Assembly: GCA_963741165.1 (NCBI GenBank)
Contig: CAVUHB010000004.1
Location: forward strand, 202,413-266,412
DNA length: 64,000 bases
Direction: 5' to 3'
Origin: Candidatus Acidiferrales bacterium
GTDB lineage: Bacteria; Acidobacteriota; Terriglobia; Acidiferrales; UBA7541
Below, piece after piece: positions 14,601-55,646 of the stretch; position 1 is the stretch's first letter, and every line of letters begins with the position of its first letter. The translations under genes were made by a program, and so were the position numbers. The notes beneath the pieces were generated by a model. The model did not search any database, had not been told where the DNA came from, and saw only the letters and a program-made list of their open reading frames with translations.

Positions 14601-14801
14601 ACGACGATCACTTGCCCTGCGATCCAACTGGCAAGTACGGCGTCTACGGGTAAAGGAGTGGTGGTCAAGGTCAATATCCCGGTTTCCTCGACCGCAGTGG
14701 CGAACACGAAGTTCACTTCGCTAACGACGGTAAGGTCCGCGAATGATCCCAAATCCACAAATAATTCCTATCTCGAGACCTATACGGTCACTAGCAAGTA
14801 A
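11684..14801 (+). pseudogene. Large secreted Ig-like / adhesin-like protein, apparently split by a +1 frameshift at 12312-12364
   Basis: ORF 11639..12364 has a signal peptide (MKLIQSRMRIIFYLAVVVLVLGAAADIALA) and choice-of-anchor-D-like repeats. ORF 12312..14801 overlaps it in the +1 frame, has no signal peptide and continues the Thr/Ser/Gly-rich beta-domain composition. Two separate genes cannot be excluded. Confidence 0.55.
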
Positions 14802-18200: not shown

Positions 18201-18925
18201 ATGATGTTCTGGGGTTTAAGGTCGCGATGGATGATGCCAGCCGAATGAGCGGCATCGAGAGCGAAACATACCTGACGAATGAGATCGACGGTCTGCTGGT
18301 GTGTGAATTTGCCGTGATCCATCTGCCAGCGGCGAAGGTCGGCGCCGTCCACAAATTCCATGGTGATAAATTTCACACCATCGGCTTCGGCAATGTCGTA
18401 GATGCGGATAACGTTTTTGTGTGTGACCTGGTGCGCGGTTTGCAGTTCCTGCTTAAAGCGCGCGAGGATGGCTGGATTTCTGGCGAGTTCTGGGCGAATT
18501 ACCTTCAGAGCCACAAAGCGGTCGATTTCAAGGTCGTGCGCCTTGAATACGGCGCCCATGCCCCCTTCGCCGAGCATATCCAGAAGCTCGTACCGCCCAC
18601 CGATGACGTCGCCGGGATTCAGCACTATTTCTGGGAACTGGGTGCCGGAGAAGGAGCCACTCGGAACACGCGTGCCGGCGAGACTTTCCGCAAGAGTGAG
18701 ATCCGGACTCGCGAGGTGTGGGACCGGGGATGCAGGCGTTTTCGCGGGAGGCCTGGTGGGGGGCTTGGTAGGAGGTTTCAGGGGAACATCGGAAATGGTT
18801 GCGCCGTCGGAAGGATCGAGCGGAGCCTGGCTCGGAGTGCTGTCCCCTTTCGCGGGCACACCAATCCCTTGCGGTCCTCCAGCGCCAGGGTGCTGCCGTC
18901 CAGGTTTTTTCTTAGGGTCTTCCAT
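15221..18925 (-). CDS. Ser/Thr protein kinase with TM segment and long TPR array
   Basis: Pro-rich N-terminus. Hanks kinase motifs GEGGMGAVFKA, HRDLKPQNIM, DFGLA and YMSPEQ. One TM helix (WIAAGALGLVLVTGGFLY), then about 700 aa of TPR-like repeats. Confidence 0.9.
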   Translation of the reverse strand: MEDPKKKPGRQHPGAGGPQGIGVPAKGDSTPSQAPLDPSDGATISDVPLKPPTKPPTRPPAKTPASPVPHLASPDLTLAESLAGTRVPSGSFSGTQFPEIVLNPGDVIGGRYELLDMLGEGGMGAVFKAHDLEIDRFVALKVIRPELARNPAILARFKQELQTAHQVTHKNVIRIYDIAEADGVKFITMEFVDGADLRRWQMDHGKFTHQQTVDLIRQVCFALDAAHSAGIIHRDLKPQNIMKDNKSGRILVMDFGLARSLESDGMTQTGMLLGTIDYMSPEQAMGKSLDARSDLFTLGLIFYELLSNTMPYKAETAMASLLKRNQDRALPLTDLDPSIPKPLSDIVAKCLERDVALRYQSASEIIADLDAWEGKRPVSASLIAPSVVIAGRRSIPWKWIAAGALGLVLVTGGFLYKGKSGPGTATELKGPVAPQVSLAILPFHNDNNDPSMDWLGSSLAEMLSTDVGQSVHMRTVPPDRIHQIFADLRIPQNSDLDPDTLRRIAEFGNADTVVWGRYAKFGDQIRIDATLRDLKKNQISPLKIEATNEKDISVAVGKLAELIRKNLAVSADVVNELKASSFQPSTKSVPALRDYSQANELIREGKNLDAVKMLQSAVTNDPQFALAWSRLAETDLTLGFDTEAAKNSRKAMDLGQSLPTAEKYLVEATHARVMKDSAKAIQAYENLAKIFPDNSDVEYTLGSLYADNGDFDKARTQFAKILKADPKNIKALWQIGSVEYQQDNPQAALEPLNKGLSLAVQVNNPEQKALILQALGISYRLMNRPEEAIKSLEDSMEITQKLGMKRLLAASLSELAQNQITIGKPEAAMTSYNQSLQILKEIGVTKDYGDTLVNRGVLYQIRGNYDKALQDYKDALQIQRDAGDVSYQAVCLSNIGDVYFLKDDTDNSLIYYQQSLQLREKLNEPAYLAETLSSLGDVHTAMGDYDEALKNLMKALEISHKANITKSAASVSGSIGKVLMYEGRLGAAVSAMQDSVNGFRSINNKSIELADSLNSLGDTLALAGRGDESGKLLEEAGSVASELKNENIHSALLNTQGDAAFYRGDFKAARTAYEQAALAASKSKDREKILITKMNLARLAVAEGRPQAAIPELRASIQQADKLHLKYFSTRSTVDLAEALIKTKDYTHARQELETALTSSEKLGLRLEKARIQFLLGDILRLTGSPSEAAGHFQQSVNLLNDLKKESGAEKLLQRSDLKSLYEEASQAAGQAKA

Positions 18926-22259: not shown

Positions 22260-22751
22260 ATGACGCCAGACACCAAGCACCTGGAAGTCACCTTGGATAC
22301 CCACGTAGAGAGCGTAAATCTCGCCGAGGAGATGTGTCTGCGAGTGGCGGAAGCGTCGGGGTTTGGCGAGGATGAGTGTTACCGGATCGGGATGGCGGTA
22401 CGCGAAGGTGTGATTAACGCGTTCCACTACGGGAATCAGGAAAAACCAGAGAAAAAGATACATCTCGAGATTGAATTGAGCGCGGAACGCATGGTGATTC
22501 ATGTGATGGACGAGGGCAAAGGGTTTAAACTGCTAGACGTACCAGACCCGCTGGCGGAAGAGAATTTGTTGAGTACATCGGGACGCGGAATCTTTTTGAT
22601 GAAAGCGTTCATGGATGAATTTGATGTGGTAGCCGGGCGTACGGGCGGAGCGGAAATCATCATGGCAAAGAAACTGCCGCTGCCAGGATCGCCGGCAAGT
22701 AATGGATCGAGTTCCGCATCGCATCCGGGTGCGCCTCATCAGGAAGCATAG
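22260..22751 (+). CDS. Anti-sigma regulatory factor, RsbW/SpoIIAB-like Ser kinase (HATPase)
   Basis: N-box-like MAVREGVINAFHYGN and G-boxes MDEGKGF and SGRGIFLM. The small GHKL-only protein of 163 aa fits partner-switching kinases. Confidence 0.75.
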   Translation: MTPDTKHLEVTLDTHVESVNLAEEMCLRVAEASGFGEDECYRIGMAVREGVINAFHYGNQEKPEKKIHLEIELSAERMVIHVMDEGKGFKLLDVPDPLAEENLLSTSGRGIFLMKAFMDEFDVVAGRTGGAEIIMAKKLPLPGSPASNGSSSASHPGAPHQEA

Positions 22752-29061: not shown

Positions 29062-31866
29062 ATGTTCTGTGCCTCCTGTGGATTTGAGATAACAACCAGT
29101 GCGCGGTTCTGCGCGCGCTGCGGCCAGGCGGTCGGCCAAGATAGGGACGCGACCGTGCTTGGTGAGGAAGAATTTCTTGAAGCGAACCCGGAGACGCTCG
29201 CGCCAGAGCCACCGGCAACGCCGCCGCAGCGTCCACCTAGCGCGACCGCACCTCCGAACCGGCCGCATTCAGCTCCTTCGACAAATCCGTTATTGATGAG
29301 CAGTGATCCGATTGGCGGCGGAAGATTCGCGCCGGGAACGCTCATCGCTGAGCGTTACCGGATTGTCGCGCTGCTTGGACGCGGAGGAATGGGCGAAGTC
29401 TACCGCGCAGAGGATCTGAAGTTGACGCAAGTTGTTGCCATTAAATTCCTGCCCACATCGTTTTCACAAGACGCGTCGGTGCTGGCGCGATTCCATGCGG
29501 AAGTCAGAGTGGCGCGGCAGGTTTCGCACCCAAACGTGTGCCGTGTGTTTGATATCGGGGACGCGGAGGGAATGCCGTTTTTGACCATGGAGTATGTGGA
29601 TGGGGAGGATCTCTCTTCGCTGGTTCGGCGGATCGGAAGACTTCCAGAGGACAAGGCGGCCGAGGTGTCACGGCAAATCTGCGCGGGACTGGCGGCGGCG
29701 CATGATCGTGGAATTGTGCACCGGGATCTGAAGCCCGCCAACGTCATGCTGGACGGTTCCGGGAAAGTACGGATAACGGATTTCGGACTCGCAGGAATTG
29801 CGGCAAATATTCAGGGAGCGGAAGTTCGCGCGGGAACCCCGGCCTACATGGCGCCCGAACAGTTGGCCGGCAGAGAAGTGACCATGAAGAGCGATATCTA
29901 TTCGCTCGGGCTGGTGATGTACGAGATTCTGACCGGGCGAAGAGCGTTTGAAGCCAACACACTGCCTGAATTGATCAAGGCGCGGGAGGAAGGGACGCTG
30001 ACAAATCCTTCCACACTGGTGAAAGATCTCGACCCGCTGACAGAACGGTTGATTTTGCGGTGCTTGGAGCGAGATCCAGCGAAGCGACCGAGCTCCGCGT
30101 TGCAGGTGGCGGCAGCACTGCCGGGCGGGGATCCCCTGGCGGCAGCGCTTGCGGCCGGAGAAACCCCATCCCCCGAAATGGTGGCGGCAGCGGGAGAAAC
30201 AGAAGGACTGAATCCGCGGCTGGGATCGCTCTATTTTGTTGCCGTGCTGGCGATGCTGGGATTGCTCGTGACGGTGAATCAGCGAGCAAAGCTGGTTTCC
30301 TATTTGCCGTTTGGCGATCCTCCGGAAGTGCTGGCTTCAAACGCCCGGGAAATGATCAAGCAATTTGGGTACGAAAAATCGCCGGCGGATACGGCATGGG
30401 GCTTCAAACTCGACAACGAGTACATTCGGCACATTCAGGAGACCGAGAAGACACCAACGCGGTGGAACGTGCTGCGCGAAGAGAATCCGCCCGCGATGAT
30501 TTTCTGGTACCGGCAGAGCCACGGGCCGCTCCTGTCCTACGCTCCCAACGACAACCTGGTGTTCGGGCGAGTGCAACCGGACCAGCCACGATTTGAGATG
30601 TCTGATTCGCGACGCGTATTGCTCAATCTGAGTGGCAAACTGATCGCTTTTGACGCATTACCACCGCAGGTGGATGAACCGAGGACAGAAGCACCGGTGG
30701 CACCGGATTGGTCGGTACTGTTTCAGGCCGCTGGACTGGATAGCGGGAAATTCAAGCCGGTCGCGCCGAGCTGGTATCCGCTGGCCTGGGGCGATACCAG
30801 GGCCGCCTGGGACGGCGCTTGGCCGGGGCATCCGGAGTCTCTGCTGCACGTGGAAGCGGCGGGATATCGCGGGAAAGCCATCTTTTTCCGGCTGATTTCG
30901 CCTTGGGATAGACCGGAGCGAATGGATTTTGGCCAGACACCGGGCGGGAATCGAATCCCGCAATTGTTCAGCCTCTCGCTGCTGATCTCGATACTTACCT
31001 TTGGGGTTTGGCTTTCGGTAAAGAATCTGAGATCCGGTCGGGGAGATTTGCGAGGTGCGGTCAGGTTGGCGATTCTTGTGTTGTGCATTGGACTCGCGAA
31101 CTGGTTGTTGCTGGCGCACCACGTTTCCGAAAGCAGAGAGATCGTGCTCCTGATGCTAGGAACCAGCGCGTCCCTTTTGTTCGCCTCATTCACCTGGCTG
31201 TTGTACGTGGCGCTGGAACCGTTTGTACGGAAGTACTGGCCGGACAGCATTATCTCCTGGACGAGGCTGCTCGATGGGCAATGGACGGATCCCGTGGTGG
31301 GACGGGATATTTTGCTCGGAACGTTGTTTGGAGTGGCGTCGGCGGTACTCGAACATCTGCAGCCGATTGTCGAGGCTGGACTGGGACGCGCGCCGATTCG
31401 CCCGATGGGATTGGCTACAACCTATGCGGTAGAAGGGTTACGCGGGACACTGGCAAGTGTTTTGTATCACGCGTCGCAGGCGCTGCCATCCACACTGATC
31501 TTATTTTTCCTGTTTTTTCCGTTGAAATTGCTGCTGAAGAAAAACTGGCTGGCGGCGCTGGTCATGTCGCTGCTCCTCTCGATCCCGAGCCTTGCGGCAC
31601 AGAATCCCTTGATCGATGCTGTGTTTACGGCGCCATTTTTCCTGGCCTATCTTTATATTCTCTATCGATTTGGGTTAGTGGCACTCACCTTCTTGTATTT
31701 CATCGATCTGCTTGCCGATGGGATGCCGATCGCCCTGCCCTTAAACGCTTGGTACACCGAAGGTGGGCTCGTTGCGGTTGTCGTGATTGTGGCGGTGGCC
31801 TTCTATGGATTCCATGTATCGCGGGCGGGGAAACCGATATTTGGTGAAGGGGAATTGCGAGTTTAG
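29062..31866 (+). CDS. Ser/Thr protein kinase with N-terminal zinc-ribbon and C-terminal polytopic membrane domain
   Basis: MFCASCGFEI..ARFCARCG zinc ribbon. Kinase motifs GRGGMGEVYRA, HRDLKPANVM, DFGLA and AYMAPEQ. One TM helix, a domain of about 230 aa, then seven or more hydrophobic helices to the C-terminus. Confidence 0.9.
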   Translation: MFCASCGFEITTSARFCARCGQAVGQDRDATVLGEEEFLEANPETLAPEPPATPPQRPPSATAPPNRPHSAPSTNPLLMSSDPIGGGRFAPGTLIAERYRIVALLGRGGMGEVYRAEDLKLTQVVAIKFLPTSFSQDASVLARFHAEVRVARQVSHPNVCRVFDIGDAEGMPFLTMEYVDGEDLSSLVRRIGRLPEDKAAEVSRQICAGLAAAHDRGIVHRDLKPANVMLDGSGKVRITDFGLAGIAANIQGAEVRAGTPAYMAPEQLAGREVTMKSDIYSLGLVMYEILTGRRAFEANTLPELIKAREEGTLTNPSTLVKDLDPLTERLILRCLERDPAKRPSSALQVAAALPGGDPLAAALAAGETPSPEMVAAAGETEGLNPRLGSLYFVAVLAMLGLLVTVNQRAKLVSYLPFGDPPEVLASNAREMIKQFGYEKSPADTAWGFKLDNEYIRHIQETEKTPTRWNVLREENPPAMIFWYRQSHGPLLSYAPNDNLVFGRVQPDQPRFEMSDSRRVLLNLSGKLIAFDALPPQVDEPRTEAPVAPDWSVLFQAAGLDSGKFKPVAPSWYPLAWGDTRAAWDGAWPGHPESLLHVEAAGYRGKAIFFRLISPWDRPERMDFGQTPGGNRIPQLFSLSLLISILTFGVWLSVKNLRSGRGDLRGAVRLAILVLCIGLANWLLLAHHVSESREIVLLMLGTSASLLFASFTWLLYVALEPFVRKYWPDSIISWTRLLDGQWTDPVVGRDILLGTLFGVASAVLEHLQPIVEAGLGRAPIRPMGLATTYAVEGLRGTLASVLYHASQALPSTLILFFLFFPLKLLLKKNWLAALVMSLLLSIPSLAAQNPLIDAVFTAPFFLAYLYILYRFGLVALTFLYFIDLLADGMPIALPLNAWYTEGGLVAVVVIVAVAFYGFHVSRAGKPIFGEGELRV

Positions 31867-36793: not shown

Positions 36794-37957
36794 TTAGTGG
36801 CAGCAGAGTACCAGGCAAGTGATGTCATCCGACTGCCGGGTGGCGCCGACGAAATCGTCGACCTGCTTCATAAGGAACTGGAGCGTTTCCTTGGCGGAAA
36901 GAGTCGGAAGTGCACGAACGACAGAAACCCAGCGCTCGTCGGAAAATTCCTGGAGGGATGAGTTGAAGGCTTCGACAACACCGTCGGTGAACAGGATGAG
37001 CGTGTCGCCTGGCGCTAGAAAGATTTCTCTGGAAACGAAAACTGCCTCGCGCGTGATTCCGAAGGGTACGCTTCCGGATTCAAGACGTTCGATCCCACCA
37101 TTCGCGCGACGAACGACCGGAGCGTTATGCCCTGCGTTTACGTAGGAGAAACGGCGCGTGACTGGCTCGAATTCGCCGATGACGGCGGTCGTGAAGCGTC
37201 GTCCGTCAAGGCTGTGCGCCGAGGCGTAGTGGTTCAATCGCTTGGCGAGTTCGGCGAGCGGAAAACCTTCGGAGGCGATGGTATGCAGGCTGGCCTGCAA
37301 GGTAGCCATCAGCAGCGCGGCAGGAACACTTTTGCCGGCAACATCGGCCATGACGAGCATGAGCTTTCCGCCCGCGGCCGCGTTATTGTCGGGATAAAAG
37401 GCGTCGTAGTAGTCGCCCGCGACCGAGTTTTGCGGCCGAGTGGAGAAAGCGACATCCGCGTCCTTGATCAGAGGAGGATCGGAGGGGACCAGCCAGGACT
37501 GTATTTCGCGTGCGATTTCAAGATCCCGCTTCATGATGACTTTGTCGGCCAGTTCCAGTGAGAGAAGGAGCAAAAAGAGGAGCGCAGCAAGAAATTCGAA
37601 GTTCAGCTCGAAGGAAGACCCGTCACTCGAGTGAACTTTGACGGAAGAGACAAACAGCAGGGCAATCGCGACAAGGAGAAGTACGCGGCGCGCCGGAGAA
37701 AGCTTGCCTAGCAGGGCCCAGAAGAATTGTTTGAGGATCGGGAAGGGGCGCTTCCAGCGGGGAAGCTTCGAGATCTGTTCCCAGTCGACATCTTTCCCGT
37801 AGAAACCATAACTCGACTGGGCATCGGCCGCGAATTGCGACCACAGGTCATCGATGGCGCGGCCTTCACTCACGCGTTGCCAGAAATCCCGGAGCGAGCC
37901 GCGGAGACCTCTGCCGGGAACCGGAGCCTGCGACGTCGGAGGGGCGGAGACACTCAT
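36794..37957 (-). CDS. PP2C-family (SpoIIE/RsbU-like) Ser/Thr phosphatase with two N-terminal TM helices
   Basis: GDYYDAF, MADVAGKSVPAALLM, YVNAGHN and ILFTDGVVEA blocks, with a DDITCLVL C-terminus. Confidence 0.85.
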   Translation of the reverse strand: MSVSAPPTSQAPVPGRGLRGSLRDFWQRVSEGRAIDDLWSQFAADAQSSYGFYGKDVDWEQISKLPRWKRPFPILKQFFWALLGKLSPARRVLLLVAIALLFVSSVKVHSSDGSSFELNFEFLAALLFLLLLSLELADKVIMKRDLEIAREIQSWLVPSDPPLIKDADVAFSTRPQNSVAGDYYDAFYPDNNAAAGGKLMLVMADVAGKSVPAALLMATLQASLHTIASEGFPLAELAKRLNHYASAHSLDGRRFTTAVIGEFEPVTRRFSYVNAGHNAPVVRRANGGIERLESGSVPFGITREAVFVSREIFLAPGDTLILFTDGVVEAFNSSLQEFSDERWVSVVRALPTLSAKETLQFLMKQVDDFVGATRQSDDITCLVLCCH

Positions 37958-45354: not shown

Positions 45355-46944
45355 TCAGATGCGGCGGGGCGTGTTCGGAAAATCCAGCCAGACTTTTACG
45401 CCGCAGAAGTGCGACCCTTCGGTGCAGATGGGGGTGGTGATTCCGGCGCGGATGTGACAGGGAGGGCCGATGAATTTCGCGAGTTGCGGATGAACTTTGC
45501 CTAGTTCGGCGAGTTCATCCATGGAGGACTGGTAGATTTCTTCCTGAGCGTTGAAACAGGTGCGCATGGTCCACTTGTGAAGAAGATGGAGAAGCGAGCC
45601 GGTCTCGACCAAACGAATGGATTTGGCATTCGGCAAGACGTACAGAGCAATCTCGGGCGGCACACCGCGATCGAGCAGCTGGTTTTTGGCGTGCCAGGCG
45701 TCCTGCATGGCCCGCTCGTAAAGGTCTCTGGCGCGAGGATTTTCTCCAAGGAGCATGGGCGTAATGAAGTCCGGTTCACGGGTATCGGCGAGGGTTAGCA
45801 ACGGACGCGAGCCGGGAACCATACGATGCCGCTGATCCTGGCTGTCGGCGGTGTGGCTGATCTTCTTGGCAAACGTGTAGTTGGCGTGCTGCAGGGCGCG
45901 CATCATCGGAGCGTGCACGCCGACATTTAGAGTTTCCAGGCGATAGAGATTGCGCGCGGGATTCAAAAGGCGATCGATGGCTTCGGCGTCCGAGCAGGCG
46001 GATTCCGGGAGACCGACAACCGCGCGATAGGATTCGGCGATCACGCGCGGGGCGTTCGGCGAATAATCGATGAGGCGTGCCGTCTTGCCCCCAAGACGGG
46101 CATCGAATTCAGCTGCGAATTCAGCGGCGTGAACCCGTTTTGGCGCGACATCTTTCCATTCCGGCAGCTCCTCGAGCGGAGTAGTGCCGAAGCGATCGAA
46201 GAATTGCGGATCGAGCTGGCGGACAAGCGCGACCATATCGCCGATGACCGCGCGAGCTTCGCTCGGCGTATCCGAGGCAGAACACATGCGCCAGAGACGG
46301 TGGAGGACGATGCCTGAAACGGTATGCACCATGGTGGTGAAGGCGGCAAGGGGCAAAACGTAGCGGGCAATTTCAATGGAACGTTTTTCGGAAGAGCGTT
46401 CGATCTTGACGATGCGCTTCGGATGGGACATTGGGCCGATGTGCCAGATGTCGTTCAAGATTTCGCGGGCGTCGGGAACCAGCAGCGCGGAAAGCTCACG
46501 GTAGTAGGCCCAAGCGCGGATGATAGCGGCTTCGTAGATGCGCCGCGAGCCCTGGTCAAAGAACAGCGAGCTCTGCGGGATGTATGCTTGCGCAGTAGTC
46601 AGACGCACGTAGCGTTGGCTCTGCTGTTCCGAATTGTAAAAAGGATGGGCGTGCAGAAAAGACCACACAAACTGCCGGCTTATATTTTCGAGGCCGAATT
46701 CAAAGTGCGCGTGCTGGTAGACGGTGTGATGGCCGCTGTAGAAGGTGCCGGCACCGATGTTGAGGCGTTGCTTATCGGTGATCTCATCGGGGTTGATGAG
46801 ATGGGTGGAATAGCAGGTACGCGCGGCAGCGATAGCGGAATCGAAGGGATGAGCGAACGCGTTTCGGAGAGTAACGCGCGGCGGCGCGGTCTCGACAGCG
46901 TCGGGAGCGGGAGAATCATCGAACATGGGTGACTGCGTAGCCAC
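45355..46944 (-). CDS. thyX: Two-domain FAD-dependent thymidylate synthase (ThyX-like pseudo-dimer)
   Basis: At 529 aa it is about twice the size of a ThyX monomer. The N-half has SRQF...SEQQSQRY (the S-x-RY part of the ThyX signature). The C-half has SQDQRHRM (the RHR part). The assignment is from motif recall only. Confidence 0.55.
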   Translation of the reverse strand: MATQSPMFDDSPAPDAVETAPPRVTLRNAFAHPFDSAIAAARTCYSTHLINPDEITDKQRLNIGAGTFYSGHHTVYQHAHFEFGLENISRQFVWSFLHAHPFYNSEQQSQRYVRLTTAQAYIPQSSLFFDQGSRRIYEAAIIRAWAYYRELSALLVPDAREILNDIWHIGPMSHPKRIVKIERSSEKRSIEIARYVLPLAAFTTMVHTVSGIVLHRLWRMCSASDTPSEARAVIGDMVALVRQLDPQFFDRFGTTPLEELPEWKDVAPKRVHAAEFAAEFDARLGGKTARLIDYSPNAPRVIAESYRAVVGLPESACSDAEAIDRLLNPARNLYRLETLNVGVHAPMMRALQHANYTFAKKISHTADSQDQRHRMVPGSRPLLTLADTREPDFITPMLLGENPRARDLYERAMQDAWHAKNQLLDRGVPPEIALYVLPNAKSIRLVETGSLLHLLHKWTMRTCFNAQEEIYQSSMDELAELGKVHPQLAKFIGPPCHIRAGITTPICTEGSHFCGVKVWLDFPNTPRRI

Positions 46945-47525: not shown

Positions 47526-48561
47526 TCAGGGTGTTGGGACGGCGGCGGTGGCTTCGTTCGAGTAGGAGCTTTCTGCGCCGGAGTGCGTGACGGCAGTAAC
47601 CGCATAGTAGTAGGTCGTGCCCGATTCGACGGTGGCGTCGTCGTAGTCTGTGGCGGAGACGAGCGCACCGGTGATGAGCTGAAACCCGCTGTTGGCGGAT
47701 TGCGACCGGTAGATGTGATAACCGGCGACAGGACTACTGCTGGCATTCCAGGAAAGATGAACCGTGTGCGAGACCGGCGTTGGTGTCGGGGTAGGTGTTG
47801 GAGATGTGGTGGAACTGGTGCCGTCACCCGCGAGTGTAACGACGGGCGGAGTGGCAAGATTCGCGCTAAGGATGGAAAGCTTGCCGGCGGCCGAACCCTT
47901 GGCGGTGGGGCGGAACCAAACCTGGAACGTCACGGATTGGTTGGGAGCCAGGCTGTATCCGGGAGAAAGATTGGTATAGCCAAACCCCGCACCTACCACG
48001 GTAATCCCGCTCAGTGTGATGTTGACATCGCCCGAGTTCTGCAACGTGACGTTCTTTGTAGTGGTCGATTGCACGGTAAGTGTGCCGAAATTTATCGATG
48101 CAGGGAGAAACCTGCGCTGCGGCAAGAACCTTTTCACCGCTCCCCGACAAGGACACGGATGCGACCGTATTCACTGCGTTCGAACTGATCTTGAGGGCGG
48201 CCGAAACGTTGCCGGCGAGCGAGGGTGTAAAGGATAGCGAGTAATCCAGGCTCATGTTTGGCAACACGACCCTCGGGATAGATGGGCCGGAGATGACAAA
48301 TTGTTTGTCATTGAGCGAGAGGCCGGTAATGCGCAGCGGGGTGCCACCGGAATTTGAAACATGAAGGGTCTGGGTAAGGGTCTGCCCAAGAACCACGGTC
48401 TTAAAATTGAAGACGGTGGAGGAAAGGGTCAGCACAGGTTGCAACTGGGAAGTGGGAGGCTGATAGGCAGCACAGCCTGAGAGCAGCAGGGAAGTCAAAA
48501 GGAAGCCGAGGAGGGCAGGGTGTCGTCGACCTGTAGAATGGCGCAGCCAAAATAGAATCAA
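47526..48561 (-). pseudogene. Surface lipoprotein (choice-of-anchor-D/ASH-like Ig domains + FN3) interrupted by a +1 frameshift
   Basis: ORF 47866..48561 gives the lipobox LLLSGC and the first Ig-like domain, ending ..SLSGSGEKVLAAAQVSP. The +1 ORF 47526..48137 continues with ASINFGTLTV.., a second domain, a (TP)n linker and an FN3-like end. The switch is at about 48098-48112. Confidence 0.8.
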
Positions 48562-48786: not shown

Positions 48787-50040
48787 TCAGGAGATGAAAT
48801 GACAACCAAAACGGAAGGAACCTTCTGAAGTGCGCCGTGTCCAAACCGGCTTCAGGTAAACCCGTACCGGGGGAAGGATGGGGACATGGAGAATTGCCAG
48901 GATGTTTTCAGGAAGCTCTTCCGGTTGCTCAAATTCGAGTGCAACGCCGCCAAAGCCCAGATCGAGCACACGAGCACGACGCTCACCCTGTTCGCCAATG
49001 ATGGCGTAGGCTTTCGTGCCGACCATCGAGACACGTTCTGCCTTTCGCTGCACGGAATAAGAAATGGACGGAGCGGGGGAGGCCATAGAACTAGCGAACG
49101 GATGAACAGCGGGTGGCGGGGCGGCCGGAGATTCTGTGGAACCGGCATCTAGAGTGCGACCGGAAGCAATCGAAACGGGTGCGGGAGAGGGGACCGATTC
49201 GGACTGGAAGGGAGAGCGGGGGGGCGCGGAATCGGCCGAGCGCACGTGATTGGTATGCTTCAGTCGATACAATCGTTCGTCAGCGACATGAATCAGCCGG
49301 TCGACTTGTTCCCCGTCTTGAGGAAAGTTGGCGACACCGTGGTCCATGGTGACGCTGATCGCAAGCTTCAGGGGGCGAAGCATTTCCGCGAAGACCGCCT
49401 CCACACGACGACTGAGAGCAAGGGCCTGATCGGGATCGGTCTGCGGTAGCAGAAGAGCGAACTCGTCGCCGCCAATCCGAAAAGCGGAGTCCGAGGTACG
49501 TAACGCTCGCTGGAAAGTACTCGCAGTTGCTTTGAGGACATCGTCTCCACGAGGATGGCCGTAGGTGTCGTTCACTTCCTTGAAACGATGCAAATCGAGC
49601 ATGACGATGCCAAATGGCAAGCCGTAGCGGCGCGCACGATTGAGTTCTTTTTCGAAATATTCGGCGAATAGGCGGCGATTGTACAGGCCCGTGAGCGGAT
49701 CGGTAGCGGCATTGCGCTGCAGTTTCTTGTACTCACCATATTCGAGAACAACAGGAACGCGAACCAGACCGGCGGTCGACAGCACATCCATCAGAACAGT
49801 TTTCAGTGAAATTACGCGGCCAAGCTGTCTAGTGAGCTCGAGTCGCTGCGAGAGCACCTCATTCCAGAGCTGAAGACAGTAAGACTCGCGCAGATCGAGT
49901 TGTGTAGTGGCACGGAAGTAGCGCTGGAGAAAGTGGCTCCGCGCAGGAATATCCATGCTTTCGAGCGTGTCGGCAAGCAGCTCGAGATAAGAGTCTTCAA
50001 TGGGCAAACGCGGGGCCGCTGGGCCGCCGGGGCTGGGCAT
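48787..50040 (-). CDS. Diguanylate cyclase (GGDEF, I-site intact) fused to a C-terminal PilZ domain
   Basis: DPLTGLYNRR, RIGGDEF with RTSD exactly 5 aa upstream (RxxD I-site). The C-terminal part has RKAER ... DLGFGG (PilZ RxxxR / DxSxxG-like). Confidence 0.88.
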   Translation of the reverse strand: MPSPGGPAAPRLPIEDSYLELLADTLESMDIPARSHFLQRYFRATTQLDLRESYCLQLWNEVLSQRLELTRQLGRVISLKTVLMDVLSTAGLVRVPVVLEYGEYKKLQRNAATDPLTGLYNRRLFAEYFEKELNRARRYGLPFGIVMLDLHRFKEVNDTYGHPRGDDVLKATASTFQRALRTSDSAFRIGGDEFALLLPQTDPDQALALSRRVEAVFAEMLRPLKLAISVTMDHGVANFPQDGEQVDRLIHVADERLYRLKHTNHVRSADSAPPRSPFQSESVPSPAPVSIASGRTLDAGSTESPAAPPPAVHPFASSMASPAPSISYSVQRKAERVSMVGTKAYAIIGEQGERRARVLDLGFGGVALEFEQPEELPENILAILHVPILPPVRVYLKPVWTRRTSEGSFRFGCHFIS

Positions 50041-50117
50041 AGCCTGGGTTTCCTAAAGTCTGCCTCTCCCCGCGGGGGCTGGGGCACGCACAGCAAACCT
50101 GTCTATCTAGAAAAGGG

Positions 50118-50134
50118 AGCAAGCCAGGTTCCAA
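50118..50134 (-). promoter_or_regulatory. Candidate sigma-54 (-24/-12) promoter of the GGDEF-PilZ gene
   Basis: The minus strand reads TTGGAAC-CTGGC-TTGCT (consensus TGGCAC-N5-TTGCW). The spacing is correct, and the -12 element lies about 78 nt upstream of the ATG at 50040. Confidence 0.6.
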
Positions 50135-50302
50135 TTCACGTTGTGCGAGCAACCTGCGACCTATAGAGGGAGGAGGCTCTGGGGACGGCGGTATCCTATT
50201 ACAAAAGGATGAGATATGCGAGTTTTAGATTCAGACGCGGGAGGTGGTGGCAACGGGAGAATGGCCACAGGCGTGTGGTCGGTCTACGGCCGGGATAGGG
50301 AA

Positions 50303-50620
50303 TTACTCAAGAGGGCGAAGGAATTCCAGGCCAAACAGACGGAGTTGTCCCATCATGTCTTGGCGTTTGACCCGGGCAACAATAGGGGGAGTCTCACTGG
50401 GGATGAGACTCGAGGAGGCTGGGGAGGGGGCTGGTATCGTGAGCTGGACGGTCTGTTCCAGGCGAAGGAGGTGGGAACAGGCTATGCAAGCACCCGTCGC
50501 GCTAATATTGATGGTCTTGCTAAGCTCGATAAACTCGGTACCATTCGCATCGGCAGCCCGGACGAAAACAGGGACCTGGATCCGGATTCTTGAGGAGCGG
50601 CGAGTTCCAGAGGTATCCAT
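50303..50620 (-). CDS. Stand-alone PilZ domain protein
   Basis: RRSSR then 26 aa then NISATG (RxxxR / (D/N)xSxxG). The ATG at 50620 is preceded by GAGGA. An alternative ATG lies at 50668. Confidence 0.8.
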   Translation of the reverse strand: MDTSGTRRSSRIRIQVPVFVRAADANGTEFIELSKTINISATGACIACSHLLRLEQTVQLTIPAPSPASSSLIPSETPPIVARVKRQDMMGQLRLFGLEFLRPLE

Positions 50621-50693
50621 TTGAGGATCCTCGTTAATCTTTTGGTCTAGACGGATGTGCATTGTCATAGTACTCAGGGTCTAGTACACCAGT

Positions 50694-50710
50694 AGCAGGT
50701 CGAGTGCCAG
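50694..50710 (-). promoter_or_regulatory. Candidate sigma-54 (-24/-12) promoter of the stand-alone PilZ gene
   Basis: The minus strand reads CTGGCAC-TCGAC-CTGCT. The -24 box is perfect, the spacing is correct and the -12 box has one mismatch. Confidence 0.6.
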
Positions 50711-50936
50711 TGCGGTGCGACAATCTCTCGACTAAAGCTTTTATTTTTAGTGCCATAGGAATTGTGACGAATGACCATCCGAAGCAATAGGCAACCAAAG
50801 GGAAGGTATTGTCTCCTGGAGTTCCCAAAATGTGCAAAGGAACGGATTTACCATTGACAGGCTGCGCCGGTGTCTGCAACGATGTGATCGCTTTCAGTAT
50901 GGGAAAATATTTACCACTTCAGAAGGAAAACCACGG

Positions 50937-52166
50937 ATGAGCAGCGCCCTTACAAATTCGGCGGGACGACTCGGTTCCGGCCACGAAGCGCTACCTTATG
51001 AACACGTGCGCGCACTGCTCGACACCTTTGACAAGGCCATGCTAGTGGTTGACCGGCAGGGACACGTCCTGCTCACAAATACCAGAGCCCGTAAGTGCCT
51101 CGAAGAACACCAAAAAAACGAACAAATTGCATTCAACCTGTTTACGGATCTGCTGAACGTGGACGCCCAGGAGATTCTGCATCGCATTGAACTCGGTGAA
51201 CATGAAATCGAATTGCAGGGCAACACGACGATCAAGCCATATCGTGCGCGAGTGAGATGGATGCCGGAATCGGATTGGCTGGCGATCGAGATTTCGAACG
51301 AGGAGCGAGGCGATCGCGAGAGCATCGAGCAGACGCAGATTACCGTTCAAGAATTATTGCAGGAGCGTGAGATTACCTACCGAAACTTGCTGGCTGCCTA
51401 TTTGAAGTTGCAGGAAGTAAACCGGCAAAAGACGGTGTTTCTGGCTTCGGCCGCGCATGAACTGAAAACGCCGCTCGCGGTGATCAAGGGCTATTACGAT
51501 TTGCTGCTGACAGGCTCGCTCGGAAGACTGACGGAAAAGCAGAAGGATATTCTCGAGGAATCGAAGGAGAGTTGCGAGCGGCTGGTTCGACTGGTATCCA
51601 TGTTCCTGAACTACTCGGCACTCGAGAGCGGGAAGCTGGTGCTGCAACTCCGGGAAAACGATCTAAGGGATTGTCTGGAAGAGATGTCCAGCCGGTGGTC
51701 AGAGGCTTTCCAGCGCAAAGGCGTAAAACTCGAATCGCACCTGGATCCCTCGATTCCCACGTTTCGATTTGATTATCAGAAAGTCCAGCAAGCGGCGGCA
51801 AATCTCCTGGACAACGCATTGAAACATACCCCCGCGGGCGGAAGCGTAACCTTGCGGGCGAAGCCGCATTTCTGGGAACGCCGAGTGGCGGAAGTCTCGC
51901 CGGTCGAGGAACGGAGGAGATTCCGGCTGCCACGGCCGAACAGCGTGGAAGTCAGCGTAACCGATTCAGGTTCGGGGATAGCACCTGAACATCATCAGGA
52001 GATTTTTGAAGATTTCGTGCGGGTGGATCGCAATACATCGGGGATGGGCCTGGGGCTAGCGATCGCGAAACGTCTCATCCAGGCACATCGGGGAAAAATC
52101 TGGGTAGAGAGCGAGCACCAACATGGCAGCACCTTCGCATTTTTGCTGCCCATGGATCAGCAGTAG
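50937..52166 (+). CDS. Soluble sensor histidine kinase (PAS-like N-terminus, HisKA, HATPase_c)
   Basis: H-box AAHELKTPLAVIKGY, N-box LLDNALKHTP, G1 DSGSGI, G2 GMGLGLAIAKRL. No TM segment. Confidence 0.88.
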   Translation: MSSALTNSAGRLGSGHEALPYEHVRALLDTFDKAMLVVDRQGHVLLTNTRARKCLEEHQKNEQIAFNLFTDLLNVDAQEILHRIELGEHEIELQGNTTIKPYRARVRWMPESDWLAIEISNEERGDRESIEQTQITVQELLQEREITYRNLLAAYLKLQEVNRQKTVFLASAAHELKTPLAVIKGYYDLLLTGSLGRLTEKQKDILEESKESCERLVRLVSMFLNYSALESGKLVLQLRENDLRDCLEEMSSRWSEAFQRKGVKLESHLDPSIPTFRFDYQKVQQAAANLLDNALKHTPAGGSVTLRAKPHFWERRVAEVSPVEERRRFRLPRPNSVEVSVTDSGSGIAPEHHQEIFEDFVRVDRNTSGMGLGLAIAKRLIQAHRGKIWVESEHQHGSTFAFLLPMDQQ

Positions 52167-52207
52167 TCGGGCGGTAAGCGGGACGAACGGCGAAAAGGGG
52201 AAAAGCT

Positions 52208-53674
52208 ATGGCAGTGAAAGAACGAATTTTGGTCGTGGATGACGAGCCGAGCATACGCAAATACCTGCAAACGCTGCTCGAGGTGGATGGATTTGAAGTG
52301 GAGACGGTGAGTAGCGGGAAAGAAGCGCTCAACCGCGTGAATAAGGGCGAACGCCCCGACTTTATCATCCTCGATGTGCTCATGCCCGAGATGGGCGGAC
52401 TCGAAACATTGCAGGAATTAATGCTCCTCGATCGCACCTTGAACGTGATCATGCTGTCTTGTTCCAATGAAGTAGGCACAGTCGTTGAGGCAATCCGGTT
52501 GGGCGCGCACGATTACCTGACCAAACCGTTTGAAAAGACGGAACTCGACGCGGCCATGCTGAAGTCCCGACAGAAGAAGCAGTTGACGCAGGAAAACCAG
52601 GTTCTCCGCGATTATTGCGACCAGGTAACCGAGGATCTGAGTTTTCTCGTGGCTAGCCCACAGATGGTCAGAATCCGGCAGCAGATCTTGCAGATTGCCC
52701 CCGTCGATGTTCCGGTATTTATCTGCGGCGAAAGCGGGGTCGGGAAAGAAGTGGTTTCGCGCATGATCCATCTGCGCTCGAAGCGTAGGAACCAGCCCTT
52801 TATTAAGGTTAATTGCGCAGCGCTTCCCGGGGAATTACTGGAATCCGAGTTGTTCGGGTTTGAACAAGGCGCTTTCACGGGGGCGGTCCGGGCAAAGCCC
52901 GGCAAATTCGAACTAGCCAACAAAGGCACAATTTTTCTGGACGAAATTGCCGAGATGTCCGTGCACTTGCAGGCGAAATTGTTGCACGTGCTGCAGGATC
53001 ATCAGTACTCGAGACTGGGTGGGCGACATCTGGTAGAAACCGATGTGCGCGTACTGGCGGCAACCAACGTGGATGTTCAGGAAGCGATGAAAGACGGACG
53101 ATTCCGCGAAGATCTTTATTACCGGTTGAATGTGCTTTCCATTAACGTTCCGCCGCTGCGGGAAAGAACATCGGAAATCCCCCTGCTGTTCAAGCATTTT
53201 CTCGAAAAGTACACCGAGAAATTCGGGAAGCCGCAGCAGAATCCTTCCAAGCATCTCTTGGACGCGGCGGTGAACTATCCCTGGCCCGGAAACCTGCGGG
53301 AACTGGAAAACTTCGTAAAGCGTTACGTTATTTTGGAAGATGACGAAGGAAGTTTGCGCGAGTTGGTGGAAATGTCGGCAACCCGGCAACGGACCTCCCC
53401 ACGCCAGGAAGCACAACAACCACCACGCGAACAGGGTCTAAAGGCTCTGGTACGCGGACTGAAAGACGAAGCAGAAATGGAAGCGATTGCAGATGCCCTG
53501 GAGAAAACCAGGTGGTGCCGCAAAGACGCCGCGAAGATGCTGGGCATCAGCTACAAAGCACTGCTCTATAAGATGAGGCAGTTCAATCTCGATACTCCCC
53601 GAGCGCGCCGAACCGCTGTGAAGGCGGAAGTACAGGAAGGCTCCTCGGTTGGCGTGGGGTTGAAAGGCGAGTAG
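52208..53674 (+). CDS. Sigma-54-dependent response regulator (REC - AAA+ - Fis-type HTH; NtrC/PrsR-like)
   Basis: REC with DFIILDVLMPEMGG. Walker A GESGVGKE, the GAFTGA loop, and a C-terminal HTH (AAKMLGISYKALLYKMRQ). Confidence 0.92.
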   Translation: MAVKERILVVDDEPSIRKYLQTLLEVDGFEVETVSSGKEALNRVNKGERPDFIILDVLMPEMGGLETLQELMLLDRTLNVIMLSCSNEVGTVVEAIRLGAHDYLTKPFEKTELDAAMLKSRQKKQLTQENQVLRDYCDQVTEDLSFLVASPQMVRIRQQILQIAPVDVPVFICGESGVGKEVVSRMIHLRSKRRNQPFIKVNCAALPGELLESELFGFEQGAFTGAVRAKPGKFELANKGTIFLDEIAEMSVHLQAKLLHVLQDHQYSRLGGRHLVETDVRVLAATNVDVQEAMKDGRFREDLYYRLNVLSINVPPLRERTSEIPLLFKHFLEKYTEKFGKPQQNPSKHLLDAAVNYPWPGNLRELENFVKRYVILEDDEGSLRELVEMSATRQRTSPRQEAQQPPREQGLKALVRGLKDEAEMEAIADALEKTRWCRKDAAKMLGISYKALLYKMRQFNLDTPRARRTAVKAEVQEGSSVGVGLKGE

Positions 53675-53970
53675 CTAGGTCTAGTACGAAGTCGTTTTGA
53701 TTGGGTACAAAAAGTCAAAACATAGCTTGCAGGAAAAATCTGGGCGCGATATGTTGCGCATCGAAACGCCAACAGTCAAGTCGACCCAGTGCTCAGGGTG
53801 CGATGTTCCGGGTCCTGCTGCTGTTGGCTCTGGCGACGCCCGTTGCCGTCCTACTAAAGCTTTGGGCAATGTAGAGAGCAAGTATACGAAGCCAGGCTGT
53901 AATTGTGCGCATTGCTGAACTGCAGTGAATCGCGCGAATGTGGTGCCGGGCACCATCGGTAAGACAAGAG

Positions 53971-54330
53971 ATGGAGTCGAGAATGAGCTTGATGACAGAA
54001 CGCCGTACCGCACGACGTTATGACCTAACCCTACCCGTTATGATCCGATTTGCTGCGCAGAGGATCGTCGGGCGCCAAGAAGGCAAGACCCGAGATATCT
54101 CGACGAGAGGACTGTTTTTTGTCATTGACCGCGACATGGAAGCGGGATCCGAACTGGACATCACCTTGACACTGCCGGCAGAAATCACCAACGGAACGGA
54201 TGTCTTTGTTCGAGCGCAAGGAAAGGTTGTCCGCGTGGAAAGACGCGTAGAGGAAGGCGAACCGAAGATGGGCGTAGCCGCAGTTATTGAACGCTATGAC
54301 ATTATTCGGGGTGAAACTGGCCGAACCTAG
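53971..54330 (+). CDS. Stand-alone PilZ domain protein
   Basis: RRTARR ... DISTRG (RxxxR / DxSxxG). The start is the ATG at 53971 or 53983. Confidence 0.8.
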   Translation: MESRMSLMTERRTARRYDLTLPVMIRFAAQRIVGRQEGKTRDISTRGLFFVIDRDMEAGSELDITLTLPAEITNGTDVFVRAQGKVVRVERRVEEGEPKMGVAAVIERYDIIRGETGRT

Positions 54331-54557
54331 CGTTAGCCGAACGGTAGCTTTGTCACTAGCCTCGATAGTATAAGAGAACAAACGTTCCTGCCTTACGACC
54401 TAAGATTTCCCTCTCCTGACCGAACAAGAATCCGGGGGACCAACCCCAGTCCCGGTACTCTGAATCCGCACTCTTTCACAAGTGATTGATAATAAAACAA
54501 TTAAATGGATGCCAAGGCTCGAGAACATGGCCCTCGAAGGAAGGCCTTTGGTCGTTG

Positions 54558-55646
54558 ATGTGCACCGTAGAGTTACTGAACCATATGCCCCAAGACCAGC
54601 CCAACAAGTCTTTGCATGGGGAACGGCTTAACCCCACGCCACCGCTCGAGATCCTTTTTGGCCATTCCCAGGCCATGGCGGAAGTGCGGGCACGGGCTGA
54701 AAAAATCTCGCCGACAAATATCCCTGTGTTGCTGTGTGGGGAAGGGGGAACCGGGAAAGAAGTACTTGCGCGGTGGATCCATACGAATTCGGAGTATCGG
54801 GGCGGAGAATTCATCAAGGTCAATTGCGCGGCGATTCCTGGACCGTTGCTTGAAAGCGAGCTGTTCGGCTACGAACAAGGTGCGTTCACAGGAGCGGTGC
54901 AATCGAAGCCCGGACGTGTGGAATTGGCGGACCGCGGAACGCTTTTTCTCGATGAAATTGCGGACCTCGACCATAATCTTCAGAGCAAGTTGCTGCATTT
55001 CCTGCAGGACGGTACGTTTTCAAGGATTGGAGACCAATCCGAGCGGAAAGTGGATGTACGCGTATTGTGCGCCACAAACAAGGACCTCGACCGAGAAATG
55101 GCCGCGGGCAGATTCCGGGAAGATCTGTTTTATCGCATTCACGTGTTTCGTTTGAAAATGCCCGCACTGCGGGAGAGGCGCCAGGATATTCCGGCCCTGG
55201 CAGAGTTTTTTCGCAAGCATCACGAAACCCAGTTTGGAATAAGGGCGGAACCGTTTTCACCGGAAATGCTCGAATATCTGCAGAATCTCAATTGGAACGG
55301 GAACATACGCGAACTGTCGAATGGGATCGCCCGATACGTTTTGATTGGACCAGAAGTCGATCTGGCCCAAGAGCAGCCAAGGCGGGCCGCGACGGGCAAG
55401 CTCAGAGCAGCAGACGCCCAGACTGTTCCTCTCAAACGAGTGGCACGAGAGGCCATCAAGGAGATGGAGCGCAGCGTGATCCTTGAGGCGTTGCGGGCAA
55501 ATCAGTGGAATCGACGCAAGACCGCGGCGACGCTCAAGATAAGCTATCGGGCATTGATTTATAAGATTCGAGAGGCGGGATTTGTATCGCACCGATCGAG
55601 AGACGGTGCGCCGAACGAGCCAACCGTAAAAATCGCTTCGCAATAG
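54558..55646 (+). CDS. Sigma-54 enhancer-binding protein lacking any N-terminal sensory/receiver domain (PspF/HrpS-like architecture)
   Basis: Only about 30 aa precede the AAA+ core. Walker A GEGGTGKE, GAFTGA, Walker B LFLDEI, and a C-terminal HTH (AATLKISYRALIYKIRE). The start is uncertain (54486-54558). Confidence 0.88.
   Translation: MCTVELLNHMPQDQPNKSLHGERLNPTPPLEILFGHSQAMAEVRARAEKISPTNIPVLLCGEGGTGKEVLARWIHTNSEYRGGEFIKVNCAAIPGPLLESELFGYEQGAFTGAVQSKPGRVELADRGTLFLDEIADLDHNLQSKLLHFLQDGTFSRIGDQSERKVDVRVLCATNKDLDREMAAGRFREDLFYRIHVFRLKMPALRERRQDIPALAEFFRKHHETQFGIRAEPFSPEMLEYLQNLNWNGNIRELSNGIARYVLIGPEVDLAQEQPRRAATGKLRAADAQTVPLKRVAREAIKEMERSVILEALRANQWNRRKTAATLKISYRALIYKIREAGFVSHRSRDGAPNEPTVKIASQ

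Follow-up and report, generated by a model that had tools for sequence, protein, structure and literature searches.

A conserved cassette of c-di-GMP and sigma-54 regulatory genes

The 64-kb stretch of acidobacterial DNA analyzed here (the window) carries, between positions 48787 and 55646, a cluster of genes for cyclic di-GMP (c-di-GMP) and sigma-54 regulation. As judged by comparison with related genomes, the conserved unit is a five-gene cassette in which genes for a histidine kinase (HK), a sigma-54 enhancer-binding protein (EBP) with a receiver (REC) domain (RR-EBP) and a stand-alone PilZ protein (PilZ5) are divergent from those for a second stand-alone PilZ protein (PilZ2) and a diguanylate cyclase fused to PilZ (DGC-PilZ), i.e. 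PilZ5 <- RR-EBP <- HK against PilZ2 -> DGC-PilZ. Domain content, gene linkage and the conservation and co-occurrence of promoters are read from the sequences and their comparison, and from these we propose, with moderate confidence, that the kinase signals to RR-EBP, which would drive sigma-54-dependent transcription of PilZ2 and of a self-limiting cyclase-PilZ protein. The host range of the cassette, as far as genome labels define it, is Candidatus Acidoferrales and close relatives (Acidobacteriota), an uncultured soil lineage. Every part comes from a familiar family, and the novelty lies in the arrangement rather than in a new kind of system; no characterized equivalent was found in the literature searched.

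A first-pass annotation of the window had described six genes forming a self-contained loop, the sixth encoding a second EBP with no sensor domain (EBP6). All six open reading frames (ORFs) are present as described and the observation as a whole holds, with the qualification that five genes form the conserved unit and EBP6 is dispensable and outside its core. Pfam agrees with the domain assignments, although the PilZ domain of DGC-PilZ and the PAS domain of HK score below their cutoffs, and the RxxD I-site, the GAFTGA motifs and the PilZ binding motifs are all read directly from the translations. None of the six proteins reached the cutoff of an NCBIfam equivalog, so that none can be placed in a named orthologous family.

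Scanning species representatives with the cyclase gave 80 loci (61–84% identity), nearly all from metagenome-assembled genomes (MAGs) whose labels read Candidatus Acidoferrales or Acidoferrum or, more widely, Acidobacteriota/Terriglobia, with about ten under unrelated names. Genomic context was drawn from these relatives; exact look-ups of the window cyclase and of P0001, its 100%-identical database copy, returned no record. When the window's proteins were scored against each locus, the five-gene module was intact in 65 of the 69 Acidoferrales species-representative loci in which 4.6 kb or more is available upstream of the cyclase; of the four exceptions, three have genes fragmented by frameshifts and one lacks PilZ5. 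The neighbourhood picked out by the first-pass annotation is thus conserved among relatives for five of its genes, and this extends to two distant contexts (L087–L089 and L093; cyclase identity 42–47%, at most 51%), in which the five genes recur with order and orientation unchanged and which cluster records also place in Candidatus Acidoferrales or Acidobacteriota. RR-EBP is the best-conserved component (67% identity between the window and L087, 79% between the window and L093), the corresponding values being 62 and 65% for HK, with a divergent sensor region that is not alignable in L087, 56 and 61% for PilZ5, 46 and 46% for PilZ2, and 42 and 47% for DGC-PilZ. At three further loci (L086, L094 and L095) the cyclase homologue, at 35–37% identity, has no kinase, EBP or PilZ neighbours.

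It might be argued that these are independent genes that remain adjacent through close kinship, with fortuitous promoter matches in between. The housekeeping genes rpmE, thyX, prfA and prmC are equally syntenic in most Acidoferrales loci, so conservation within the order cannot by itself prove function. Yet the immediate flanks of the five-gene unit vary within Acidoferrales, and in the two distant contexts the five genes stay together between entirely different flanks: RDD, DUF1802, CBS, aldo-keto reductase and S8 peptidase genes in one, and ABC-2 permease, glycosyltransferase and Ser/Thr kinase genes in the other, with no EBP6, ASH-repeat or rpmE/thyX gene around either. The promoters described below bear on the same question.

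Predicted sigma-54 promoters upstream of PilZ2 and DGC-PilZ

PilZ2 and DGC-PilZ each probably lie behind a sigma-54 promoter of their own. The predicted -24/-12 elements, both on the minus strand, are found at 50118–50133 for DGC-PilZ (TGGAACCTGGCTTGCT; TGGAAC-N5-TTGCT), with a predicted transcription start site (TSS) near 50107, and at 50694–50709 for PilZ2 (TGGCACTCGACCTGCT; TGGCAC-N5-CTGCT), with a TSS predicted near 50683. Using the consensus TGGCAC-N5-TTGCW, with GG and GC exactly 10 bp apart, they are the sole matches with at most one mismatch in the 64 kb. Their number is at chance level (2 found, 2.23 expected), a point in favour of fortuitous matches, and their significance derives from placement and cross-species conservation rather than from the number of matches. 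The near-consensus elements that the first-pass annotation saw before these two genes prove to be conserved in position across about 75–80 species, in which one element with invariant GG/GC and exact spacing lies 68–85 nt (about 75) before the cyclase ATG, as TGG-N9-TTGCT in nearly all module loci, and a second invariant GG/GC element lies about 71 nt before the originally assigned PilZ2 start. The spacer bases inside both elements vary freely between species. The background rate per 120-nt stretch of the window is 1.5% for matches with at most two mismatches and 6% for those with at most three.

No conserved sigma-54 element was detected upstream of HK, PilZ5, EBP6 or the large or small ASH-repeat gene flanking the cluster; a match with at most two mismatches precedes the large ASH gene in 8 of 66 loci, at scattered positions. 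HK, RR-EBP and PilZ5 probably form one transcription unit with ordinary promoters. A scan for sigma-70 and terminator consensus sequences returned fewer sites than shuffled sequence and was uninformative.

In the distant modules the elements are kept before both PilZ2 and DGC-PilZ, whereas the cyclase-PilZ homologues without a neighbouring kinase or EBP (L086, L094, L095) have no sigma-54-like element, the best candidate carrying at least four mismatches. Because they are kept in the distant modules and missing from the stand-alone homologues, the promoters co-occur with RR-EBP. An explanation by kinship and fortuitous matches, already disfavoured by the differing flanks, has to contend with promoters fixed in position in about 80 species around variable spacers, against a background of 1.5–6%, and with their loss exactly where the kinase/EBP pair is missing, and we consider it highly improbable.

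In most Acidoferrales genomes two promoters and two EBPs lie within 7 kb, and labour might be divided between them, with RR-EBP acting on one promoter and EBP6 on the other so that two signals are integrated. The conserved blocks upstream of the two promoters differ in sequence, and the helix-turn-helix (HTH) regions of the two EBPs, which share 44% identity overall, are similar and not identical, both of which would suit such a scheme. Both promoters, however, occupy the same positions in modules that have RR-EBP only (L087, L093), and both are kept in the seven Acidoferrales loci that have no EBP6 nearby, which makes a division of labour unlikely. RR-EBP is the sole EBP accompanying the module in all contexts and, by parsimony, we infer that it serves both promoters.

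The kinase and its response regulator

HK (50937–52166, plus strand) is predicted to be a soluble histidine kinase with a weak PAS-like sensor followed by dimerization/phosphotransfer (DHp) and catalytic (CA) domains, matched in Pfam by HisKA and HATPase_c. The PAS match scores 19 bits against a cutoff of 22.6, the H-box reads SAAHELKTP, and inspection revealed no long hydrophobic segment. Its ATG at 50937 is conserved in the intergenic alignment. RR-EBP (52208–53674, plus strand) begins 41 bp after the HK stop codon and is a REC-AAA+-HTH_8 sigma-54 activator (Pfam REC, Sigma54_activat, AAA_lid and HTH_8), with a Response_reg score of 105.7 bits and, by inspection, the pattern DD...D55...S/T...K in which Asp55 is the predicted phospho-acceptor.

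RR-EBP and EBP6 both exceed 220 bits for PF00158, with AAA_lid_14 and HTH_8, and both have GAFTGA, FLDEI and a Walker A motif (GESGVGKE and GEGGTGKE). Immediately after Walker A the two read, by inspection, KEVVSRM and KEVLARW; compared with the c-di-GMP contact motif KExxxRN of FleQ, the Arg is present and the Asn is not. RR-EBP scores below the named NCBIfam equivalogs (AtoC, 429 against 714; PEP-CTERM PrsR, 375 against 503). Membership of a PEP-CTERM/PrsK-PrsR system was considered and rejected, RR-EBP being under the TIGR02915 cutoff and the large ASH protein having, by inspection, no terminal PEP-CTERM motif.

The cyclase-PilZ fusion

DGC-PilZ (48787–50040, minus strand) consists, according to Pfam and an AlphaFold2 model, of an N-terminal four-helix bundle, a GGDEF domain with an RxxD I-site, a disordered Pro/Ala/Ser linker and a C-terminal PilZ beta-barrel. 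The GGDEF domain scores 151 bits in Pfam, and the I-site RTSD, separated by five residues (SAFRI) from GGDEF, is conserved unchanged down to 32% identity. The model (mean predicted local distance difference test score, pLDDT, of 78.7) supports this layout of bundle, GGDEF, tether and PilZ, with a confident bundle (helices 14–89), a GGDEF domain at pLDDT >90, a disordered linker (279–332) and a beta-barrel (336–415) at pLDDT of about 90. Foldseek matched the GGDEF fold to the T. maritima cyclase (TM 0.84, 42% identity), and the modelled fold is of the normal, active type; with the full-length model, Foldseek returned GGDEF domains alone and no match for the four-helix bundle. Conservation of the protein is high, more than 120 clusters matching it over the full length at 71% identity or above, and the architecture of bundle, GGDEF, variable linker and PilZ reaches to about 32% identity in a library of 50%-identity representatives.

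An alternative is that DGC-PilZ works mainly as a receptor or scaffold, or that its PilZ is a non-binding interaction module, the cassette reading c-di-GMP made elsewhere. The PilZ domain scores 21.4 bits, marginally below the Pfam cutoff of 22.5; its motifs (RKAER...DLGFGG), invariant within the clade of the window, have DLGFGG in place of DxSxxG (Ser to Gly); and the model ends without the C-terminal helix typical of canonical PilZ domains. In addition, some stand-alone PilZ proteins with intact motifs, such as PlpA, do not bind c-di-GMP (PMC8316039). On the other side, the GGDEF motif, the metal and substrate residues, the I-site and RxxxR are invariant among homologues to about 32% identity, the GGDEF fold resembles that of active cyclases, distant members of the family have the canonical DxSxxG (DLSxGG), and PilZ domains in fusion proteins are reported to keep binding (10.1101/814665). 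We regard the alternative as very unlikely and take DGC-PilZ to be a putative active cyclase.

Fusions of GGDEF to PilZ have figured among the listed architectures since the first description of PilZ by Amikam and Galperin in 2006 (as summarized in 10.1101/814665; also 10.1101/2020.02.11.943704), and no characterized member was found in the literature searched. DGC-PilZ shares with them the combination of cyclase and PilZ receptor in one polypeptide; what sets its family apart from such fusions generally is a conserved N-terminal four-helix bundle together with a long disordered tether, and one subclade has fixed genomic partners (kinase, EBP and two PilZ genes). One distant homologue (37% identity; L094, 7954–15357) lies within a different c-di-GMP cluster, together with another GGDEF protein, a stand-alone receiver and a 1286-residue GGDEF-AAA_16-HEAT protein. 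Recruitment of the cyclase-PilZ fusion has evidently not been confined to a single signalling context.

Two stand-alone PilZ proteins

PilZ2 (50303–50668, minus strand) and PilZ5 (53971–54330, plus strand, directly after RR-EBP) both score above the Pfam PilZ cutoff (PF07238), at 37.3 and 44.2 bits, and are putative c-di-GMP receptors. Their binding motifs, RRSSR...NISATG in PilZ2 and RRTAR...DISTRG in PilZ5, are conserved across 60–70 orthologues, with RxxxR and NxSxxG kept in 70 orthologues of PilZ2. The start of PilZ2 had been placed at 50620, which is probably internal and 14–16 codons too short. In most species the reading frame has a conserved in-frame ATG or GTG 11–16 codons further upstream, and in 16 species the position first assigned is not occupied by a start codon. 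Translation in the window therefore probably starts at 50662 or 50668, and the N-terminal extension that results (MxIRLDQ.. / MxxTGLLKDG..) is conserved at the coding level. The start of PilZ5 is ambiguous between 53971 and 53983. The two proteins have no BLASTP similarity to each other and neither has sequence relatives in the PDB; as judged from this comparison they are not recent duplicates. No conserved block or conserved promoter was found in the spacer between RR-EBP and PilZ5, which ranges from 105 to 651 nt across loci.

Across 16 orthologues, including those of the distant modules, PilZ5 has 35 invariant positions, among them stretches unrelated to nucleotide binding (LTLP, VRA.GKVVRVE and GVAAVIE.YDI) of the kind that a conserved protein partner would produce. 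As a constant companion of the kinase/activator pair with long invariant surfaces, PilZ5 is the best candidate for feedback on the kinase or the REC domain. There are parallels for such an interaction. In Pseudomonas aeruginosa HapZ binds the REC domain of SagS at high c-di-GMP (10.1101/2020.02.11.943704), and a PilZ protein binding the regulator HinK has also been described (PMC10912698). HapZ-SagS resembles the arrangement in the window in that a single-domain PilZ protein with intact motifs is tied to a histidine kinase/REC pathway, and it illustrates that c-di-GMP can gate phosphotransfer. The link in the window is however only a genomic one, PilZ5 always following RR-EBP; PilZ5 would have as its partner a soluble kinase or an activator of NtrC type rather than a hybrid kinase, and the cassette of the window also encodes a cyclase and a second PilZ protein.

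In a further reading, conceivable though on balance doubtful, the stand-alone PilZ proteins would gate sigma-54 transcription and the cassette would be a closed feedback device. Binding of PilZ5 to the kinase, or to the REC/AAA+ activator, would depend on c-di-GMP, and the activator would in this way be tuned or latched by its own products, the cyclase and PilZ2.

EBP6 and the flanking genes

EBP6 (54558–55646, plus strand) is a sensorless AAA+-HTH_8 sigma-54 activator (Pfam Sigma54_activat, AAA_lid and HTH_8), in which merely some 55 residues precede the AAA+ core and there is no regulatory domain. GAFTGA is kept in its orthologues. Its matches in the PDB span 235 bits (NtrC1) to 177 bits (PspF), with FleQ among many equally good. 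In 48 of 55 Acidoferrales loci a separate ORF for EBP6 lies past PilZ5, at gaps of 31 to 3066 bp, and it is missing from the flank in the other seven, where both sigma-54 promoters are still kept; neither distant module has it. By this comparison EBP6 is a frequent but dispensable, lineage-specific accessory neighbour outside the conserved unit.

The first-pass annotation had suggested that PilZ might act on this second EBP and on flanking surface-protein and exopolysaccharide (EPS) genes as the output. In its fullest form this is a six-gene closed loop, in which PilZ5 would keep EBP6 inactive or active according to c-di-GMP and EBP6 would drive the surface-protein and EPS genes. Sensorless EBPs such as EBP6 are typically controlled in trans (PspF by PspA, HrpS by HrpV). 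EBP6 lies within 400 bp of PilZ5 in 32 of the 48 loci, and a large ASH-repeat gene follows it in 23 of the 48. Moreover, MXAN_2902 of Myxococcus xanthus is a natural PilZ-EBP fusion, its PilZ domain being predicted not to bind c-di-GMP (PMC8316039), and is a Rosetta-stone hint that a PilZ and a sigma-54 activator may be coupled functionally and work jointly; the PilZ proteins of the window differ in being separate and in keeping their binding motifs. Against the six-gene loop, PilZ5 is kept in the seven Acidoferrales flanks and both distant modules that are without EBP6, some genomes have extra genes or up to 3 kb between PilZ5 and EBP6, the downstream neighbour of EBP6 changes between genomes, and neither ASH gene has a conserved sigma-54 promoter. 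An action of PilZ on EBP6 is possible but speculative, and the six-gene loop as a whole seems to us unlikely.

The flanking genes themselves vary between genomes. The surface proteins are ASH/DUF1573 Ig-repeat proteins, the small ASH gene 3' of the cyclase being present in roughly half of the loci, and the supposed EPS genes are, by Pfam, rmlD, an rmlC-like gene and VanZ only. As judged from gene order, the Ig-repeat surface-protein and rml genes are variable neighbours and not parts of the conserved unit.

EBP6 resembles PspF and HrpR-HrpS in consisting of AAA+ and HTH domains only, and is no closer to PspF than to NtrC1, CapR, NifA or FleQ. No PspA- or HrpV-like gene adjoins EBP6; PilZ5 is a candidate for that role, although its linkage to EBP6 is not conserved, and EBP6 stands outside the conserved core.

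Two observations on neighbouring genes may be added. In the window the small ASH/Ig-like lipoprotein gene (47526–48561, minus strand) is split into two overlapping ORFs by one frameshift near 48082–48143; its orthologues in L001 and L002 are intact (320–337 residues), and the gene is either a pseudogene or the result of a long-read indel error, many similar splits occurring in the sister MAG loci L006 and L023. A CBS-pair gene adjoins the module twice, at L002 5151–5585, between PilZ5 and EBP6, and at L087 8220–8660, convergent with the cyclase; this may be coincidence or a loosely associated accessory.

A proposed mechanism and its relation to known systems

In the mechanism that we propose, a cytoplasmic signal would be perceived by the PAS-like domain of the soluble kinase, which would phosphorylate Asp55 of the REC-AAA+-HTH activator. 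RR-EBP would then assemble on the conserved upstream blocks described below and remodel the sigma-54 holoenzyme at both promoters, resulting in co-induction of the PilZ2 receptor and the diguanylate cyclase. The cyclase would limit itself by product inhibition through its RxxD I-site, and its PilZ domain, on a flexible tether of 50–65 residues, could provide a second autoregulatory or partner-docking site. c-di-GMP would load PilZ2 and the constitutively co-expressed PilZ5; PilZ5 might act back on the kinase or on REC, in the way that HapZ acts on SagS, and PilZ2 would carry the output to targets encoded elsewhere. The arm running from HK through RR-EBP and sigma-54 to the cyclase and a PilZ receptor, as first put forward in the first-pass annotation, has strong comparative support in gene linkage across three unrelated genomic contexts, in the conserved -24/-12 elements and in the loss of the promoter where kinase and EBP are missing. 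The pairing of EBP and promoters, the enhancer sites, enzyme activity, c-di-GMP binding and, by analogy with the precedents cited, the partners of all PilZ proteins are what we infer.

Several points weigh against this proposal. The assignment of promoters to RR-EBP is by parsimony only, because two EBPs are nearby in most Acidoferrales genomes, and with housekeeping synteny also kept across most Acidoferrales loci the argument for a functional unit rests largely on the two distant contexts and on promoter co-occurrence. The fusion's own PilZ domain is atypical in its Pfam score, its DLGFGG motif and its missing C-terminal helix. No phosphodiesterase or output gene is linked to the cassette, and no rpoN was found in the 64-kb window, the rest of the genome not having been checked for it. 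The basis is wholly computational, and all the genomes are uncultured MAGs.

The absence of an EAL or HD-GYP phosphodiesterase from the window, as noticed at the outset, was borne out by Pfam and by a six-frame motif scan: there was no EAL or HD-GYP match among the six genes and 30 further large ORFs of the window, the sole HD domain in these being that of a CCA/poly(A) polymerase, and the scan found neither DDFGTG nor an HHE..GYP signature, and GGDEF once only.

AAA+ EBPs and c-di-GMP come together in the control of surface behaviour in FleQ, VpsR, Nla24/EpsI and BerB (PMC12564702, PMC5552954, PMC8316039). FleQ, VpsR and Nla24/EpsI bind c-di-GMP themselves, and all four, including BerB, act downstream on EPS or flagellar genes, whereas the conserved EBP of the window would stand upstream, its inferred targets being a cyclase and a PilZ receptor, and reception of c-di-GMP would be delegated to separate PilZ proteins. 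Borrelia burgdorferi, with Hk1-Rrp1-PlzA and Hk2-Rrp2-RpoN, likewise places c-di-GMP synthesis under a two-component system, with a PilZ protein as reader, and it also has an activator of NtrC type that works with sigma-54 (PMC4013479, PMC3037356). There, however, one protein serves as both cyclase and response regulator, so that control is exerted after translation, and sigma-54 belongs to a separate pathway; in the window it is the sigma-54 activator that acts as response regulator, and the cyclase would be controlled at the level of transcription. In Vibrio alginolyticus, genes of c-di-GMP metabolism are reported to be under sigma-54 control (PMC11722192), and a 2025 cross-phylum survey of sigma-54 regulons mentions neither c-di-GMP genes nor Acidobacteriota.

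The regulatory biology of Candidatus Acidoferrales, an abundant group of uncultured soil Acidobacteriota, is essentially uncharted, and the literature searched held nothing on c-di-GMP signalling in Acidobacteriota related to the cassette. The module offers a testable wiring, with a two-component sigma-54 activator whose targets would be a cyclase-PilZ fusion and a PilZ adaptor, and with a third PilZ protein on the sensor arm. Nothing in it overturns current models of c-di-GMP or sigma-54. If correct, the wiring would document NtrC-type transcriptional control of c-di-GMP synthesis, as opposed to the usual post-translational control, and would give a first functional context to the long-known, uncharacterized GGDEF-PilZ architecture. 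Should PilZ5 also feed back, the cassette would be the first PilZ-controlled EBP circuit and a compact, transferable c-di-GMP pulse generator or bistable switch. Since it comprises only five genes with compact promoters, the cassette could be reconstituted in a sigma-54-proficient host without culturing its source.

Other conserved non-coding elements

An alignment of 80 intergenic regions revealed conserved blocks, CTCGCATATCT and TTTTGTAATAGGATA (50192–50222, minus strand), 60–115 nt upstream of the cyclase TSS, which are a candidate site for an activator or a DNA-bending protein. Upstream of PilZ2, a block of about 40 bp (CTGTCAATGGTAAATcCGTTCCTTTGCACATTTTGGGAA; 50822–50860, minus strand) lies 110–150 bp before the -24 element, with most of its columns at least 95% conserved in 75 loci; it is recognizable in L093 as GTGTCAATGGTAAATAAGTTCC and is a candidate enhancer, or upstream activating sequence, for RR-EBP. 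A 14-bp near-palindrome, GGTAAATATTTTCC (50902–50915; consensus GGAAAATATTTTCC), is found 22–35 nt before the HK start and is a candidate operator or second enhancer.

Two further motifs lie between the sigma-54 promoters and the start codons and are conserved over about 80 species and in L093. The first is the palindrome CCCCGCGGGG in the cyclase leader (50068–50077), invariant in 16 of 17 aligned species, one having an inserted G, and with CCCCGCTGGGG as its counterpart in L093. The second is the inverted repeat GTACT-N8-AGTAC (50670–50687), conserved in 75 loci and extended in L093 to arms of 8 bp. Both may be operators for some regulator. With the revised start the PilZ2 leader is only about 15–20 nt, and because this leader is short and the repeat overlaps the predicted TSS of the PilZ2 promoter, an operator is suggested rather than an RNA hairpin. 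The upstream block 'TGTCAATGGTAAAT' and both leader motifs are kept in the distant modules.

A riboswitch or structured leader before the cyclase was considered and rejected. RNAalifold found no covarying pairs, folding showed no excess stability (z = -0.29), and Rfam gave no match in the whole window at gathering thresholds or in the island at E up to 1; these results favour conserved DNA sites over a structured RNA leader.

Other features of the window

Further signalling genes of the window (15221–18925, 22260–22751, 29062–31866 and 36794–37957) encode two eukaryote-type Ser/Thr kinases, of which one carries a long TPR array, and a phosphatase of the SpoIIE/PP2C type. They also encode an anti-sigma-like protein with HATPase_c_2, which suggests a partner-switching module. 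Two adjacent ORFs of 241 and 829 residues (11639–14801, plus strand) have no Pfam match at E up to 1e-5. A cytochrome P450 ORF (8096–9106, minus strand) spans profile positions 19–355 of 462 and may be truncated or frameshifted. The ThyX (Thy1-family) gene at 45355–46944 (minus strand), whose Pfam assignment rests on orthologues in L001, L002 and L004 only, encodes about 525 residues, roughly twice the usual length, which suggests a duplicated or fused Thy1 domain.

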